IMG/VR virus record: IMGVR_UViG_3300024259_001623
Length of the DNA stretch: 64,000 nucleotides
Source: a virus
Taxonomy: Duplodnaviria > Caudoviricetes
Strand: one strand, 5' to 3'
In this document: one piece after another, positions 14,048 to 26,372 of the stretch
How positions within the stretch are numbered: position 1 is the first letter of the stretch
Layout of the letters: the number at the start of each line of letters is the position of its first letter
Translations under genes and position numbers: made by a program
Notes under the pieces: generated by a model
What the model was told of the DNA's origin: nothing
What the model saw: only the letters and a program-made list of their open reading frames with translations
Database searches by the model: none

Positions 14048-14623
14048 TTACTTAATTACATCAAAGTATCTATAGGATTTCTTTTTATTTTTATCTTTGT
14101 TTTGTTTTTTAATATGTTTAACACATCTTTCATATTTTCCCTTGTCTTCTCTACCAGCAGATTCTGTGCATACAGCCCAAGGATTATATGGTTCCGTTTC
14201 TGATTTTGGATATTTACTTTTTGCAATTTTTAAAATATCATAATATCTTTCAGTTGATGCTGCCATTCCCATGCCTTTACCCATCATGCCTTTACCTTTA
14301 CCCATCATACCTTTACCCATCATACCTTTACCCATCATACCTTTACCCATCATACCTTTACCCATCATACCTTTACCCATCATACCTTTACCTTTGTCCA
14401 TATCTTCTTCCATCTTTTCTAAATGATCATAATATCTATCATTTTCTGTTAAATGATCCATAGCTATTTCTAAAGCCAAATCTGGATCATCAGTATGTTC
14501 CATCTCCGTAAGAATTCCCTTCTCTAACTGTTCTTTACAGAAATCCGATGGAACTCTATTATCCGCCAAGCCATCTGGTAATCTATCTTTATGTTTTGCC
14601 GTTTTAATTATTTGCATTCTCAT
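14048..14623 (-). CDS. DUF5661-like protein with (GKGMM)n repeat
   Basis: QLEKGILTEMEHTDDPDLALEIAMDHLTENDRYYDHL motif; low-complexity linker. Confidence 0.7.
   Translation of the reverse strand: MRMQIIKTAKHKDRLPDGLADNRVPSDFCKEQLEKGILTEMEHTDDPDLALEIAMDHLTENDRYYDHLEKMEEDMDKGKGMMGKGMMGKGMMGKGMMGKGMMGKGMMGKGKGMMGKGMGMAASTERYYDILKIAKSKYPKSETEPYNPWAVCTESAGREDKGKYERCVKHIKKQNKDKNKKKSYRYFDVIK
14301..14390. repeat. 15-bp tandem repeat CCCATCATACCTTTA x6 (encodes GKGMM)
   Basis: Six perfect copies plus degenerate copies at about 14265-14300. Confidence 0.95.
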
Positions 14624-15383
14624 CCCTATTTTGATAATATTTTAATCTTGCCTCTCTCATCTTCATTTTTGATTCTTCACTATGTCTCCTGCCTATTCCG
14701 CTTTCCGAAATTTTCTTCCTTGTTTCATCACTAATATTAGCTTTAGCAATTCTCATTTTTTCTTTCGTTTCTTCAGTCAATGTACGCCCTTTTAAGGATC
14801 TACTAATCTTCTCTTTCTGCTCTTTAGTTATAATTCTTCCCTTTCTCGCCTTACTCATATTCGCCGTTGCCTCTTTTGACGCTTTTCTTCCCTTTAAAGC
14901 TTTACTAATTTTATCTTTTTGTTCTTGAGGCATTTGATACCCCATATGAGATTCACTCATTTTCTTTCTAATCTCTTTAGAAGGATTCCATCCCCTTCTA
15001 GACTCAGCCAATTTCTTTTTATGTTCAGTCGTTCGATTCTTAGCCAATATGCTTAATTTATTTCTAGTCTCTTGAGAAACTTCCTTATTTCCTGTTTTTG
15101 GAGAAATGTTATACCCTTTATCTCTTAATAGGGTTTTCCACTCTTTTATATTTTCATTTTCCTTTTTAGCAAGATCTTCTATTGAACATTCTTCTATAAT
15201 ATCAAATTTAAAATTTTCTTCTCCATACTTATTAAAAGCATTTTGTAAATGATTATTTTCATGCTTGCCATGTCTCAATTTATATAAATGACTTCTTCGT
15301 CTTTGAGTCAAATTCCTACTACTACCAATATATTTTTTATTATTTACTTTATTTATGATCATATAAATGCCTATTTTTTTCAT
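14604..15383 (-). CDS. GIY-YIG homing endonuclease with NUMOD3-like repeats
   Basis: GIYMIINKVNNKKYIGSS...HENNHLQNAFNKYG; repeated SEETK/RKKIS motifs; likely start 15383 after GGAG. Confidence 0.9.
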   Translation of the reverse strand: MKKIGIYMIINKVNNKKYIGSSRNLTQRRRSHLYKLRHGKHENNHLQNAFNKYGEENFKFDIIEECSIEDLAKKENENIKEWKTLLRDKGYNISPKTGNKEVSQETRNKLSILAKNRTTEHKKKLAESRRGWNPSKEIRKKMSESHMGYQMPQEQKDKISKALKGRKASKEATANMSKARKGRIITKEQKEKISRSLKGRTLTEETKEKMRIAKANISDETRKKISESGIGRRHSEESKMKMREARLKYYQNRDENANN

Positions 15384-15433
15384 GCTAAATTCTCCAGTTT
15401 TTAATACAATAAGCATATTTATATTCTATTTAT

Positions 15434-19535: not shown

Positions 19536-20078
19536 TTAATACATTATCTCGATTTCATCTTCTGTGCAGCTATCTCCTATCATCTGTATAGCCTTTTGTA
19601 TTCTTTGATGACATGCTTGTGTAGAAATACTTAATTTTTCTGACATCTCTTTATAGCTCAAATCTTCAAAAAATTTCATATGAATATCTTTTCTTTGGTC
19701 TTTACTCAAAATACTCATCTTATTATCGATAAAATCTTTGATATCTACGCTATTGTCTACTTCTGCTACCGGATGACTATCATCATTGTCTAAATTTAAT
19801 TCGCAAAATAATTCTTTTCTTCTTTTTTTAATTTTAGAAAAATAATTCAGATATGATCTATAAATAGCTACGCAGGCAAATGTGGAAAATTTATGTCCTA
19901 ATTCTTCATCAAAATTTTGAGAAGCTCTCATTAGTGCTGGCAGTCCATAATCGTATATGATTTCATCTTCAATCTCATTATTGCAATTAAATTTCTTTAA
20001 CATCTTATACAATAATCCGAAATTTTTTACTACTGTTCTCCATTCTTTTTCAGTTATTTTTTTCATATTATGCCTCAA
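19536..20078 (-). CDS. Sigma70-family RNA polymerase sigma factor (regions 2 and 4 only)
   Basis: ALMRASQNFDEELGHKFSTFA (region 2) and LSYKEMSEKLSISTQACHQRIQKA (region 4 HTH). Confidence 0.85.
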   Translation of the reverse strand: MRHNMKKITEKEWRTVVKNFGLLYKMLKKFNCNNEIEDEIIYDYGLPALMRASQNFDEELGHKFSTFACVAIYRSYLNYFSKIKKRRKELFCELNLDNDDSHPVAEVDNSVDIKDFIDNKMSILSKDQRKDIHMKFFEDLSYKEMSEKLSISTQACHQRIQKAIQMIGDSCTEDEIEIMY

Positions 20079-20181: not shown

Positions 20182-21012
20182 TTAAGAAGCAAAAATAAAG
20201 TCATGATGTTCTGTAACTGCCATCTCAGAAGCGGTAGATATTATTTTTTTCAGATCACAATCATAAAAACCAGATGTGCTAAAAGCATTTAATTCTAATA
20301 AATATTTCTTTCCATTACTCTCACATACATCCATTGTATATGTCTTGTCTGGATGCCACACAGCCCCCTCAACGAGCCTTCTAACGTAGTCCCACTCAGG
20401 AGAACCTTCTTTGCTTAATTCCATTTCTACAGAACCATTATCTTTATACATAGAACCAGTAATAACCTCTGTATCGGTTACAACAAATCTCCATTCTCTG
20501 TCTATCTTTTTAGGACTTGACACTACAACCAAAAGTTCTGGAGAATCTTCAGATACAAAACTCAACATACTTTCATTCAATCCATCAAGAGAAATTACTT
20601 CTCCATCGAATTCTTTGTATCCGCTACTTGGTCTGACAAAAATCTTATTGTCTTCTCCAAAATTCTCAAAAATATATTCCTTTCTTCTAATCAACTCTTG
20701 AAGAGGAATCATAATATAATCTTGGTTGAATAAATGTTTTCCCCAATACGTATAATATTTAAAGCATTCGAAATTAGCCAACGTACACCATCCACAAGGA
20801 ATCCAATTCTTTTCTCGAAGTAATCTCCTCATGAATCTTAGACTTCCGTAAAAGATCACACAGCTATAACCAGGGAAAAGATTATAATTATGAGATTGAA
20901 AATCTTTTAAATTCACCAAATCATAAGACATGCCTTGGTTATTGATCTCTTTCTTGAATTCTTCTATATTCTCGTCAAATACATCTTCTTCTAATATCCA
21001 ATTTGCTTTCAT
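20182..21012 (-). CDS. ATP-grasp protein (DUF4343/R2K-like)
   Basis: IFVRPSSGYKEFDG, REWRFVV, YTMDV, LLELNAFSTSGFY. Confidence 0.8.
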   Translation of the reverse strand: MKANWILEEDVFDENIEEFKKEINNQGMSYDLVNLKDFQSHNYNLFPGYSCVIFYGSLRFMRRLLREKNWIPCGWCTLANFECFKYYTYWGKHLFNQDYIMIPLQELIRRKEYIFENFGEDNKIFVRPSSGYKEFDGEVISLDGLNESMLSFVSEDSPELLVVVSSPKKIDREWRFVVTDTEVITGSMYKDNGSVEMELSKEGSPEWDYVRRLVEGAVWHPDKTYTMDVCESNGKKYLLELNAFSTSGFYDCDLKKIISTASEMAVTEHHDFIFAS

Positions 21013-21111
21013 AATCTTGTCTCAGTAAACCGCTTCCCTTGGAAAGAGTAGTTTTGCTAAAATTAATATTTTCTTAAAGGTTTTTCTTATATATTACGAT
21101 AAGTTACATAT

Positions 21112-22236
21112 ATGAAGATAACTCGTACAATTAAACTTAAACTCAATATACCTGAATCGGAAATACTATCCACTGTTCAAGCATATACAAAAGCATATAA
21201 CCTTATATGTCAACAAGGTTGGCAAGATAAAGACTACAATGCTATATCTCTACACCACAAAACATATAAAAATGTTAGAAAACAATTTAATCTTCCTGCT
21301 CAACTAGCTATTTCAGCAAGGACAAAAGCAACTGAAAGCCTTAAATCTGTTAGATCTAGAATTATTAAAAAACAAAAAGCTACTCAACCAAATTCTAAAC
21401 AATGTTCAATCAGATACGACAAAAACTCTATTACTATCTGGTTTGACAAAGAAAAAATTTCTCTTCTTACTGTTAATGGAAGAAAGAAATATTCTATCCG
21501 AGTGCCAGATTATTTTAAACAGTATATTACTTGGAATAAATGTTCTGCTGAACTTATGATCAGAAACCATACTGTTTTTCTTAATATTACAGTTTCTACA
21601 GAAAAAACTGATATTCCTCAAACAGATACTTATGTAGGAATAGATCGTGGTATCAAAAAGATAGCAGTAACATCTGAAAAACAATTTTTTAATGGATCTC
21701 AAATTAAAAGAATTACAGATAAATATGAAAAAAATAAAAGTAAACTTCAAAGCAAAGGAACTAAATCTGCCAAAAGACACCTTAAAAAACTTTCTAAAAA
21801 GGTTAACCGTTTTCGCAGAGATGTAAATCATTGTATTGCTAAACAAATTGTAAAATCTGTAAAACCAGGAAGTACTATTATTCTCGAAGATTTGGCTGGT
21901 ATTCGTCAAAATGTCAGATTGAGGAAGAAACAAAGAACAGAACTAAATAAATGGAACTTTTACCAGTTTGAACAGTTCTTGAAATATAAAGCAGAAGAAA
22001 AAGGTATTAAAGTAGAACATGTTTCTGCCAGATATACTTCTCAAAAATGTAGTAAGTGCGGTTATATTTCTCGTTCTAATCGTAAGAGTCAGTCTCAGTT
22101 TAAATGTACAAAATGTTCTTATCAATTAAATGCAGATTTAAATGCTGCTTTTAATATTAAGAAAAATTACTTAGACAGTATATCTTATCTAGGTAGGGTT
22201 GTAGTCAATCAACCTATTGTAACATCGTCAGTATGA
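21112..22236 (+). CDS. tnpB: IS200/IS605-family TnpB RNA-guided endonuclease
   Basis: RuvC-I VGIDRG, RuvC-II ILEDL, zinc finger CSKC...CTKC, RuvC-III NADLNAA; catalytic D/E/D intact. Confidence 0.95.
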   Translation: MKITRTIKLKLNIPESEILSTVQAYTKAYNLICQQGWQDKDYNAISLHHKTYKNVRKQFNLPAQLAISARTKATESLKSVRSRIIKKQKATQPNSKQCSIRYDKNSITIWFDKEKISLLTVNGRKKYSIRVPDYFKQYITWNKCSAELMIRNHTVFLNITVSTEKTDIPQTDTYVGIDRGIKKIAVTSEKQFFNGSQIKRITDKYEKNKSKLQSKGTKSAKRHLKKLSKKVNRFRRDVNHCIAKQIVKSVKPGSTIILEDLAGIRQNVRLRKKQRTELNKWNFYQFEQFLKYKAEEKGIKVEHVSARYTSQKCSKCGYISRSNRKSQSQFKCTKCSYQLNADLNAAFNIKKNYLDSISYLGRVVVNQPIVTSSV

Positions 22237-22274
22237 CGATAGTTACAAGTCTCCACTTTTAAGAGGTAATTGAC
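21112..22274 (+). mobile_element. Solo tnpB IS200/IS605 derivative (no tnpA); right end TTGAC at 22270-22274
   Basis: 3' end ...GTTACAAGTCTCCACTTTTAAGAGGTAATTGAC resembles IS605-type right ends; left end not identifiable. Confidence 0.7.
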
Positions 22275-22294
22275 AATATATTATACCGAAGTTA
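22190..22294 (+). ncRNA. Putative TnpB omega-RNA (scaffold to 22274 plus guide; 5' limit uncertain)
   Basis: Hairpins GGTTG/CAACC and TTGTAAC-ATCGTCA-GTA-TGACGAT-A-GTTACAA; GTCAA (22204-22208) is complementary to terminal TTGAC (pseudoknot). Confidence 0.65.
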
Positions 22295-22307
22295 TTTTTA
22301 ACAGGCA

Positions 22308-22341
22308 ATAAAAAAGCCACGCAAAAACGTGACTTTTTATT
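22308..22341 (-). terminator. Intrinsic terminator, possibly bidirectional
   Basis: Minus strand AATAAAAAGTCACG-TTTTTG-CGTGGCTTTTTTATT between convergent genes. Confidence 0.75.
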
Positions 22342-22359
22342 AAAATCAAATATTTATTT

Positions 22360-22737
22360 TTAAAATACTGCTTTAACGATATCTGGATACAATTCCATTA
22401 ATCGCAAGAAATCTTCGATACCTTGGCCCCATTCTGAAGACGCATAAAACTGATCTTCAACCCCAGTATTAGGAGGAACGAGTTTAACGAAATTACGAGC
22501 AATGAATCCTTTTAATTGTTCCATCCAATTCTCAGATTGCATAATACTTTGTAATTCTGCATCTAATTCAGGAAAATTCCTAGATTCTAATTTTAATAAT
22601 TCCAAAGCATCTACCAAAGCATTAGCATTTTCATCTTCTACTTCGGGCTGATTATCTTCTTGGAACTCATAATAATCTCGCTCCATTTGTTGATCACCAA
22701 AACTATCATAATATTGTGCGGTTTTTATTCTTTTCAT
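22360..22737 (-). CDS. Hypothetical acidic protein with N-terminal IKTAQ motif
   Basis: MKRIKTAQYYD...; GGAG RBS. Confidence 0.7.
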   Translation of the reverse strand: MKRIKTAQYYDSFGDQQMERDYYEFQEDNQPEVEDENANALVDALELLKLESRNFPELDAELQSIMQSENWMEQLKGFIARNFVKLVPPNTGVEDQFYASSEWGQGIEDFLRLMELYPDIVKAVF

Positions 22738-24281: not shown

Positions 24282-26372
24282 CTATTTTCCTTCAATTCTC
24301 TCTAATATCTTTTTACATCTCTTAGAAGGATCTTTAGTTAAAAAAGCTGCCTTTTTCCCAAAGTAGTAAGGAACAACAAAATCGAATTGTTCTTTTGTTA
24401 TATCAATAATTTCTTTGTTATATTCTGCCCACCAATGTGAAACACCATCTTCCAAAGTATATCTCTTTATTTTTATATCATATTTCTCTTTCAATATATG
24501 ATATAAAGATTCAGTAGCTATATAACAAGCACCATGAATAGGAGTATCACCTTGATATTCTTTCTTTATTAAATCAAAACTTAATACTTTCTTTATCTGA
24601 TCACAAATATCTATAATTTCTTTTTTTTCACAAAAATTAATCTTTGTTAAATTATAAACCCATTTCTTTTTTCCACAATCCCATATAACATACATTCTTC
24701 TCGAATTATTCCAATCTACGATAGTCATCCCCTCCGGCCTGTTTTTATTAGTCTGTCTTTGAGATTGCTTATTACAATACTTCTGTTTTTTATGATCATA
24801 ATAAAAATAACTTGGTGGATATTCTTTCTCTAAAGAAAAATCTAAAACACTATAAATATTCCCCTCAGAAAAAATATTGTCAGACCAACTAATAATATTA
24901 TCATAACCAGATTTTATAGACCACTCCCTGAAATATTTAAATAATTTACTAGAGCCACCTTGAACCGTTACACCATCCTTAAAAACCAACCTGGTCAAAA
25001 TACAAGCCTTCTTATCTCCACCACGCTCATGATGCTTGCCTGCCGTCATAACCCCTACAGTATCTCCATTATATACTAAATTAAAATATTTAATTGTTCC
25101 TCTTGGAGTTCCCTGTATATGATATTTCTCAATAAAATCATCAGAGTTACTATGAGATATTATACATTTACGAGCAGCAATCTTTTTCTTATTTAAACCA
25201 AAAACAGATTTTAAATATGTCTTAACCTGGTTCTCTCTTTGTAAATAAGTATGTTCAAAAACATGAACCAATCTATAACCCTTTTCATTACATAATCTAG
25301 TCTTTTCTATGTGCGTTTTCTTAGCTTTTTCACGAGAGAGGTTAGCCTCAGAATGCCAAAAACTACCATTAAATTCTACAGCAACTTTTTTATCCTTATC
25401 TACTATATCTAATTCTAGCGGAGTAATTATAGAACGATCATTAAACGAGACATTAGATCCTTCCTCTTTTAACCAGTCGTACAATTCTTTCTGTTTTTGT
25501 TGTGTAGGAAAAGTATATGTAGAATAATATCTATCCCTAAATTCATCCTTTAATAAAGCGGCAGTTGCACTTTGATAATTTAAATCAAAGTCTTCACAAA
25601 CTTTTTTTAAAGAATTTTTCAACAATTTATCCCAAAAATCTTGTCCTCTTAAAGTATTAACTAAATCATAATGACCTGCCTCATTTATGCCTATAGTGAT
25701 ATTAAAATTATGTTGAGTTTTATTTTTTATATCTTTATTTTGTTGAGGATTTTTACAACCATATTTTTGCATATTAGTATTTTCTATTTTTTTTCGAATC
25801 TCTTTATTTTTGAGAGGATTATCTACTCCATATCTCTCTACATTTGTCTGTTTCATTTTTTCTTTTATATCTTCACTTTTTAAAGGATGATCTACACCAT
25901 ATTTTTTAATATTAGTTTTTTTAATTTTATCTTTAATCTCTTCTGACTGAAAAGGATTTTCAACACCGTACCTTTTCAAATTTGTTTTTTTAATTTTATC
26001 CTTATTTTCTTTAGATAATCTAACATTAGAAATTTTCTTAGCTATTTCTTTATTTTGACTTGCATATTCAGATCCGTACTTCTCTTTAATCTTTTTTTTA
26101 GCTTTTTTTCTAATTTCAGGATCAGAAAATGGAGAACATTGTTTCTTCATTTCTTTTATTTTACACTCTTTATGACAAGCTGATCCTGATTTTATAAAAA
26201 ACCCTTTCCTAACTTTATGCTGTTTTCCACAAAATCTACAAATAGCAATAACAAATTTACTTGATGAATTACCTAAAGTGTCAGGATCATATCCAAACTC
26301 TTTTATAGTTTCTTCTTTTAAAATCTTTGATTTAAAATTAAATATCTTACGTTCTTTCATTTTTATCCTCAT
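24282..26372 (-). CDS. Homing endonuclease-like protein (zinc ribbon, KYGV-x-NP repeats, PD-(D/E)xK-like nuclease) with extra C-terminal domain
   Basis: CRFC/CHKEC; five TNxxRYGVxNP-type repeats; LELDI...AVEFNGSFWH; C-terminal GACYIATE...HWW...DIT. Confidence 0.75.
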   Translation of the reverse strand: MRIKMKERKIFNFKSKILKEETIKEFGYDPDTLGNSSSKFVIAICRFCGKQHKVRKGFFIKSGSACHKECKIKEMKKQCSPFSDPEIRKKAKKKIKEKYGSEYASQNKEIAKKISNVRLSKENKDKIKKTNLKRYGVENPFQSEEIKDKIKKTNIKKYGVDHPLKSEDIKEKMKQTNVERYGVDNPLKNKEIRKKIENTNMQKYGCKNPQQNKDIKNKTQHNFNITIGINEAGHYDLVNTLRGQDFWDKLLKNSLKKVCEDFDLNYQSATAALLKDEFRDRYYSTYTFPTQQKQKELYDWLKEEGSNVSFNDRSIITPLELDIVDKDKKVAVEFNGSFWHSEANLSREKAKKTHIEKTRLCNEKGYRLVHVFEHTYLQRENQVKTYLKSVFGLNKKKIAARKCIISHSNSDDFIEKYHIQGTPRGTIKYFNLVYNGDTVGVMTAGKHHERGGDKKACILTRLVFKDGVTVQGGSSKLFKYFREWSIKSGYDNIISWSDNIFSEGNIYSVLDFSLEKEYPPSYFYYDHKKQKYCNKQSQRQTNKNRPEGMTIVDWNNSRRMYVIWDCGKKKWVYNLTKINFCEKKEIIDICDQIKKVLSFDLIKKEYQGDTPIHGACYIATESLYHILKEKYDIKIKRYTLEDGVSHWWAEYNKEIIDITKEQFDFVVPYYFGKKAAFLTKDPSKRCKKILERIEGK

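Follow-up and report, generated by a model that had tools for sequence, protein, structure and literature searches.

A decayed tnpB-only IS200/IS605 element at the start codon of a jumbo phage R2K-clade ATP-grasp gene

Results

Organization of the locus

The window, by which we mean the whole stretch of 64,000 nucleotides of viral DNA analyzed here (IMG/VR record IMGVR_UViG_3300024259_001623), derives from an AT-rich jumbo phage with nearly every gene on the minus strand. A 434-kb contig carries the same proteins. As judged by alignment with its relatives, the segment 21013-22274 is a 1,262-bp tnpB-only IS200/IS605 element (IS1341-like) and a decayed member of a known family. It is flanked by an R2K ATP-grasp gene (20182-21012, minus) and by a gene for a 125-amino acid protein (22360-22737, minus), for which further relatives were not found. 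The features of the locus are as follows.

19536-20078, minus: phage-encoded sigma70/ECF-like factor gene, directly downstream of the R2K gene
20182-21012, minus: intact R2K-clade ATP-grasp gene, 276 amino acids, its ATG being the insertion point
21008-21012, plus: target motif/TAM TTCAT, read on the minus strand as ATGAA, the start of the R2K gene
21013-21051, plus: decayed left end, placed by alignment with relatives
21019-21024, plus: 5' arm of the left-end outer stem, preceded by a 6-nt spacer
21026-21029, plus: left-end DNA guide, mutated to TAAA (GAAA in relatives)
After 21029 and within 21013-21051, plus: 5' arm of the TnpA hairpin, followed by a deletion of about 51 nt
21074-21102, plus: phage-type tnpB promoter, TTAAAGG ... 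CGATAA, conserved in the clade and followed by a leader of 8-9 nt or none
21112-22236, plus: tnpB, 374 amino acids, with intact RuvC residues (D178/E259/D342) and zinc finger
22168-22274, plus: predicted omega-RNA scaffold, from the fold, the alignment of relatives and pair covariation
22168-22195, plus: omega-RNA stem 1
22196-22215, plus: omega-RNA stem 2, with pseudoknot loop 22204-22209
22217-22248, plus: omega-RNA stem 3
22246-22249, plus: right-end DNA guide CAAG
22250-22266, plus: shortened right-end hairpin
22270-22274, plus: TTGAC end
22275-22294, plus: predicted guide, formed by host flank and reverse-complementary to the leaderless R2K promoter displaced by the insertion
22280-22308, minus: sigma70-type promoter TTGCCT-17-TATAAT, from junction reconstruction together with 10 of 12 matching positions, a number that alone is not above chance
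22310-22338, unstranded: hairpin resembling a bidirectional terminator, with A and T runs, read from the sequence and missed by a strict scan

About 25 close relatives (70-89% identity) were identified, at least several of them on large phage contigs; collections of plasmids and isolated phages contained no close relatives. The relatives have different flanks past TTGAC, so the clade has moved repeatedly. No tnpA gene was found in the 64-kb window or in two related jumbo phage records, as had been claimed from the window alone, and an autonomous IS605 element was rejected on this ground. An autonomous element with the same type of left end is found elsewhere (L109).

A GIY-YIG/NUMOD3 homing endonuclease gene (14604-15416, minus) and a DUF7487 nuclease-like gene (24282-26372, minus) share the region, so selfish nucleases are common here. 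We also observed that unrelated proteins begin with MNWYK or a near variant, both in the window (15932 and 24243, minus) and in L010, L018 and L019, and that several other proteins have a KTAQ-like motif near the N terminus. These N termini are possibly a targeting tag of the phage group.

The TnpB protein and its promoter

The product of tnpB scored 182.6 bits with the NCBIfam guided_TnpB model (cut-off 100). Residues D178, E259 and D342 and the four zinc-binding cysteines are invariant across 43 homologs, in agreement with the original prediction of an intact RuvC triad. The best PDB matches by sequence are Cas12f-like chains. The type V-F nuclease Cas12f was rejected as an identity for the protein, because the Cas12f2 model gave 143 bits against a cut-off of 450 and no CRISPR repeat array was present in 20900-22500.

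Pairwise dN/dS values for tnpB were 0.06-0.15 (about 0.1), and the codon changes private to the window copy comprise nine synonymous and two non-synonymous ones. The gene is under purifying selection. Decay of the left end amounts to about 0.17 substitutions per site, compared with a total dN to L019 of only 0.048. TnpB thus appears to have remained constrained while the left end rotted, with the qualification that dN/dS cannot precisely date selection relative to the loss of that end. Among the clade copies with upstream sequence, about half have no working left end, and the fully readable ORFs of these are intact. On this evidence about half of the phage-clade copies are locked. One copy, L002, is frameshifted.

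Relatives of bacterial type have TTGACA at the position of the tnpB promoter. The motif TAAAGG...CGA(T/A)(T/A)A occurs 10 times in a related 548-kb phage, versus 3 control matches, and its spacing is mostly fixed. From this comparison, the clade has exchanged the bacterial TTGACA-type tnpB promoter of its relatives for a phage-type motif. The TAAAGG promoter class may be read by the phage-encoded sigma70/ECF-like factor, whose gene possibly lies in the transcript lengthened by the insertion. A TAAAGG-type promoter also precedes a 54%-identical TnpB (L067) and an unrelated 401-amino acid TnpB-like gene (L197) in other phages, which suggests repeated adoption of this promoter type. The L197 gene is located one gene upstream of an R2K homolog.

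The left end and the target motif

The original prediction had found no recognizable left end. That proved wrong: a decayed left end lies directly after TTCAT and is homologous to the intact left ends of L002, L004, L009, L010, L012 and L019. In relatives this region is nearly invariant and consists of TTCAT, a spacer of 5-9 nt, an outer stem, the DNA guide GAAA and a hairpin; six of the eight intact relatives have no differences across 43 nt. The window copy has about five substitutions (the guide change included) and one indel in 30 nt, and a net deletion of about 51 nt removed the 3' arms and the second hairpin. The distance from the left end to the tnpB ATG is 87 nt in the window versus 137-138 nt in relatives. 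An intact left-end hairpin with a TAM-matching guide is present in relatives but absent from the window.

Comparison between elements places the insertion immediately 3' of a conserved TTCAT, without target duplication. Wherever the left end of a clade member can be traced, TTCAT precedes the left-end stem by 5-9 nt, and TCAT is so placed in most outgroup elements. The left-end guides GA[A/G/T]A (for TCAT) and the right-end guide CAAG (for TGAC) fit the IS608-type pairing rule. TTCAT is also the published TAM of an IscB element, ISGst5 (bioRxiv 10.1101/2023.03.14.532601). A host origin of the 5-9 nt after TCAT was considered and rejected, since direct junctions rebuild normal Shine-Dalgarno (SD) or leaderless spacings. 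A further TCAT-docked left end (L336:125-162) has the same G-to-T change in its DNA guide as the window copy.

The right end and the omega-RNA

All relatives share sequence up to TTGAC (22274) and diverge immediately beyond it. This boundary is sharp in 20 relatives, with a different flank at each non-duplicate locus, and it fixes the start of the guide at 22275. The omega-RNA scaffold overlaps the 3' end of tnpB and, in the predicted structure, places the pseudoknot before the guide. The fold of the window sequence alone gave z = -3.7. Over 20 relatives 94.6% of cells pair and 18 pairs are changed on both sides; the pairing was matched by none of 500 shuffles and exceeded all slid controls, in a covariation test that can be inflated by the relatedness of the sequences. 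The stems and pseudoknot proposed from the window alone were thus recovered, the pseudoknot (GTCAAT/ATTGAC, 22204-22209 with 22269-22274) with the restriction that its pairs are nearly invariant and so fit the structure without giving covariation proof. In the window, base pairing is preserved in stems 1-3 and in the pseudoknot, and stem 2 shows a double change.

The right-end hairpin, already described as broken, has lost 4 nt relative to the relatives and is the most eroded of the 20, although the right-end guide CAAG and the terminal TGAC are intact. This hairpin is both the TnpA site and stem 4 of the omega-RNA. Stem 4 of the ISDra2 omega-RNA is contacted by the WED domain of TnpB (PMC10097598), so by analogy the shortened stem may weaken the ribonucleoprotein of the window TnpB. 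The decay of the left end and the shortening of the right-end hairpin together indicate that the copy is no longer excisable by TnpA. The earlier description of the element as immobilized but apparently active is consistent with the damage to both TnpA-binding ends and the conservation of the ORF and scaffold.

The hairpin at 22310-22338 would end the tnpB/omega-RNA transcript as well as that of the upstream minus-strand operon. Rfam returned no match near threshold. An IStron was rejected on this result, on the distance of 99 nt from TAM to tnpB and on the antisense orientation of the element.

In some elements the end hairpins supply stop codons to the genes that they abut. The loop of the right-end hairpin provides a minus-strand stop codon in the gene tails at L001:4148-4150 (RNase H), L009:5148-5150 and L013:5148-5150, and left-end loops do likewise in several viral elements (L098, L103, L105 and L120). 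One contig, L032 (1984-2386), is identical to the window up to 22578 and then continues into an unrelated ORF. It is probably a chimeric assembly, and it possibly marks a recombination point 300 bp from the right end.

The guide and the displaced promoter

The guide is antisense to the -10 box and spacer of a sigma70-type promoter. The original prediction had noted a promoter-like site there, and the site extends to a full TTGCCT-17-TATAAT (22308 to 22280). Removal of the element in silico yields TTGCCT-17-TATAAT, 5 nt and then the R2K ATG. On this reconstruction the promoter originally drove the R2K gene and now reads antisense through the element. Such a leaderless layout is common in viruses, as 46 of 66 distinct matches to the 17-mer formed by the TAM and the first 12 nt of the guide open ORFs of at least 50 codons. 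Insertions of the family follow TCAT, which reads ATGA on the other strand, and copies on start codons therefore receive the displaced promoter or ribosome-binding site as guide; the guides of relatives also read as displaced SD sequences or promoters. The overlap of guide and promoter is, on this comparison, a by-product of docking, and regulation is not needed to explain it.

A syntenic TnpB-free contig carries an R2K ortholog with 79% identity and the same downstream sigma-factor gene. It has 73 bp from the R2K ortholog to the previous gene, compared with 85 bp in the rebuilt window. The suggested search for empty-site relatives thus produced one such allele, and the element ends and the TAM were set instead by comparing filled relatives. 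A search of IMG/VR with R2K as the query returned nothing, and more distant R2K homologs sit in other gene contexts. An 18-nt match to the empty junction (L193) was rejected as an unrelated chance match. All 14 contigs with an identical TnpB protein carry the filled allele, so there is perhaps little left to home into.

The search for guide matches found no TAM-plus-seed site in the window. Elsewhere it found at least 118 viral stretches with TAM and seed, all with three or more mismatches in guide positions 13-20; seed-level off-targets of the guide are therefore possible. An apparent likeness between the guide and the tnpB promoter (21087-21107) was discounted as evidence of self-targeting, since the promoter stretch is not preceded by TCAT and the window holds no TAM-plus-seed site.

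The R2K gene now has no SD sequence (-2.7 kcal/mol), whereas 27 of the 45 window genes have one. Loss of the hairpin beside its ATG may compensate for this in translation.

Start codons and SD sequences in related left ends

A search for left ends of this layout, selected by a pattern that demanded TCAT and an outer stem of 4 bp, recovered 72 distinct viral examples, which belong to TnpB, IscB and gene-less elements. The ATG at the junction opens an ORF of at least 50 codons in 48 of the 72 (67%), against a background of 26.6% (p = 1e-12); gene starts account for only 2.6% of the ATGA sites in the window. With an SD defined by an energy of at most -5 kcal/mol on the strand of the gene, a distal SD right beyond the outer stem was present in 79% of left ends; the figure was 7% for control windows shifted 24 nt inward and 1% for the opposite strand. 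Ten left ends have a proximal SD within the spacer, and eight of these have no distal SD (Fisher p = 2e-5). After siblings were collapsed to 34 clusters, a procedure that is not equivalent to a tree-based test, 28 clusters had a distal or proximal SD versus 2 controls, and the exclusion remained (p = 0.004).

The outer stem is predicted to form in 83% of cases, and the median distance from SD to ATG is 9 nt with the hairpin looped out versus about 50 nt in the linear sequence. The hairpin-less L007 has a similar tract at a normal SD distance from its ATG. A control scan with another TAM gave mostly chance matches and one true element, which targets TTAT and has no SD. In the sub-clade to which the window belongs a 31-nt insert displaces the SD tract and there is no well-placed distal SD; the window copy has none.

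Three observations from these elements concern other arrangements. IscB and shorter IscB-like genes (L077, L111, L120, L072 and L090) share this left end. They are oriented like the host gene, and their reading frames end at or within the left-end hairpin, immediately ahead of the host ATG, an arrangement that suggests translational coupling. The 548-kb phage contains a second, gene-less element of about 420 bp (L190, G001:C1 near 176,000) whose left end, promoter, omega-RNA scaffold and right end are all intact, and the only tnpB copy of this phage has lost its left end; the gene-less element possibly provides a second guide RNA in trans. A truncated relic that retains the left end, L192 (G003:C1 near 67,300), consists of the left end, promoter and about 11 first tnpB codons on the ATG of a 263-amino acid gene.

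Discussion

Comparison with known systems

The element resembles the tnpB-only IS200/IS605 elements of the IS1341 group, exemplified by ISGst of Geobacillus, which (bioRxiv 10.1101/2023.03.14.532601) likewise have an overlapping omega-RNA, hairpin ends with 4-nt DNA guides, a guide taken from the flank and no tnpA. Unlike the ISGst-type elements, it is phage-borne, has a phage-type promoter and is decayed at both ends. Start-codon docking and a replacement SD were not encountered in the passages of that preprint consulted here. With ISDra2 TnpB and its omega-RNA (PMC10097598, PMC8612924) the window copy shares the RuvC triad, the zinc finger, a four-stem scaffold and a pseudoknot before the guide. 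ISDra2 has the TAM TTGAT and is autonomous with tnpA, whereas here the TAM is TTCAT and stem 4 is shortened. At the family level there is a likeness to the IStrons, IS605/IS607 elements with a group I intron (bioRxiv 10.1101/2023.11.20.567912), in a proposed RNA-level rescue of the gene landed on. In contrast to the IStrons, the element has no intron and lies antisense to the host gene, and the rescue would be by a looped-out ribosome-binding site rather than by splicing.

The TldR proteins (bioRxiv 10.1101/2025.07.22.666180; PMC13622181) are similar in being phage-borne, without working ends and with a promoter-complementary guide. TldR is RuvC-dead, whereas the D178, E259 and D342 of the window TnpB are present and the RuvC domain is intact. 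The guide, moreover, is drawn from the flank of the element itself and is different in each relative, and no target or partner gene is conserved, unlike in TldR. Free-standing phage homing endonucleases of the GIY-YIG and HNH types cut an empty allele and are copied into it by repair. The lifestyle predicted for the window copy is similar, with cutting of the empty allele at co-infection and copying by repair, but differs in being RNA-guided, with a target set by the insertion site, and in its transposon origin.

Origin and maintenance of the window copy

We consider it probable that the element is a locked copy docked on the leaderless start of the R2K gene and maintained through RNA-guided homing into alleles that lack it. 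A TnpA acting in trans would have inserted an element of the jumbo phage clade just 3' of TTCAT, at the leaderless R2K start (minus strand). The rebuilt junction indicates that the insertion separated the promoter from the R2K ORF, and the right flank, hence the guide, thereby became the displaced promoter. Afterwards, to judge from the relatives, the left end decayed, the right-end hairpin was shortened and excision was lost, while tnpB was kept under purifying selection and is predicted to be expressed from the phage-type promoter. TnpB and its omega-RNA would cut TTCAT plus the guide sequence in sister phages that co-infect the cell and have the empty allele; the break would be repaired with the filled genome as template and the element thereby copied, in the manner of a free-standing RNA-guided homing nuclease. 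Since TAM and guide occur together only in the empty allele, homing is the simplest force maintaining TnpB. Homing is a known role of IS605 TnpB (bioRxiv 10.1101/2023.11.20.567912 and 10.1101/2023.03.14.532601). Transcription from the displaced promoter would still read through into the R2K gene. The strong left-end hairpin stood 6 nt from the R2K ATG, and selection may have favored its loss because translation is thereby freed. Both possibilities raised in the original prediction bear on this account: homing into TnpB-less alleles is the best model, with a syntenic empty allele in existence, whereas domestication with a promoter-targeting meaning is dispensable, as docking suffices.

That the copy is instead a dying relic, recently locked, with an omega-RNA killed by the 4-nt loss in stem 4 and an ORF left intact by selection during its mobile phase, seems to us unlikely but far from negligible. 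Both ends are damaged, the right-end hairpin is the most eroded of 20, the allele is fixed in every sampled contig, and L002 shows that such copies do frameshift. Set against this, the left end has accumulated about five substitutions per 30 nt and a deletion, yet the private tnpB changes stand at nine synonymous to two non-synonymous; stems 1-3 and the pseudoknot keep their pairing through a double change in stem 2, and the tnpB promoter is intact. We regard it as very unlikely that the copy is a domesticated weapon or regulator, in which TAM and 12-nt seed form a consensus leaderless sigma70 junction and the complex cuts or blocks promoters of rival phages or the host, its own copy being shielded by the insertion. 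In its favor, the 17-nt TAM and seed occur in at least 118 viral stretches, 38 of the 66 distinct matches have a -35 match of at least 4/6 and 46 open ORFs of at least 50 codons, and guide positions 1-12 are the essential ones in ISDra2 (PMC10097598). Nevertheless, every match has at least three mismatches in guide positions 13-20, five large phage records show no enrichment (5 versus 10 in the control), and the guide is different in each relative, so that no target is conserved. The nuclease is intact, unlike the TldR repressors, and docking alone accounts for the overlap. Least probable of all, in our estimation, is a cis effect in which the insert serves as an antisense leader or convergent unit that times expression of R2K and the sigma factor, with nuclease activity incidental. 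The displaced promoter and the tnpB promoter do face each other over the element, and the downstream genes encode an ATP-grasp enzyme and a sigma factor, but this would leave the purifying selection on TnpB amino acids unexplained, the insertion site differs in every relative, and a TnpB-free syntenic allele exists.

A possible translation-rescue device at family level

We are inclined to think that the left ends of TCAT-targeting elements, whether TnpB, IscB or gene-less, have evolved as a device for rescuing translation, with an SD acting across the looped-out TnpA hairpin. An SD beyond the outer stem, or in the spacer, would restore translation of the docked gene; the window copy appears to have lost this device. 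SD sequences that act across a hairpin have precedents in genes 38 and 25 of phage T4. The alternative is that docking reflects survivor bias only and that the tract is recognized by TnpA, or is left over from the ribosome-binding site of a deleted divergent tnpA, and plays no part in translation of the target gene. This has a real chance of being right, if short of an even one: starts and positions near 3' ends are the least harmful sites in a dense genome, and L001, L009 and L013 are in gene tails; about a third of the junctions are not starts; and in the sub-clade of the window the tract is not usably spaced. Docking could be due to survivor bias alone, but the SD pattern could not. The tract is missing mainly where the spacer holds an SD, the looped-out spacing centers on 7-10 nt, the hairpin-less L007 has a similar tract at the normal SD distance, and the single TTAT-targeting element was found without a tract. 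The tract also has the same position in TnpB, IscB and gene-less elements, and in the IscB elements this is the 3' end of the gene.

Within the literature searched, which covered few subscription journals, we found no report of start-codon docking of IS605 or IscB elements with a replacement SD, and no paper on a hairpin-bypassing SD in this setting. What is newly added here is the quantified pattern of distal or proximal SD sequences over TnpB, IscB and gene-less elements, the promoter swap of the clade and the frequent loss of the left end.

The window copy would be an example of a TnpB transposon becoming a fixed RNA-guided homing nuclease driven by a phage promoter, and such locked copies are a likely intermediate toward domesticated forms such as TldR. 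For IS200/IS605 elements the reversed start codon, as a target motif, would be a safe landing site, and their left end seems to supply a ribosome-binding site able to act over the folded transposase hairpin. If so, the rescue ribosome-binding site is a second means, beside IStron splicing, of hiding the cost of an element. It would also explain why many natural TnpB and IscB guides resemble promoters or ribosome-binding sites, and overlaps between guides and promoters would need caution before they are read as regulation.
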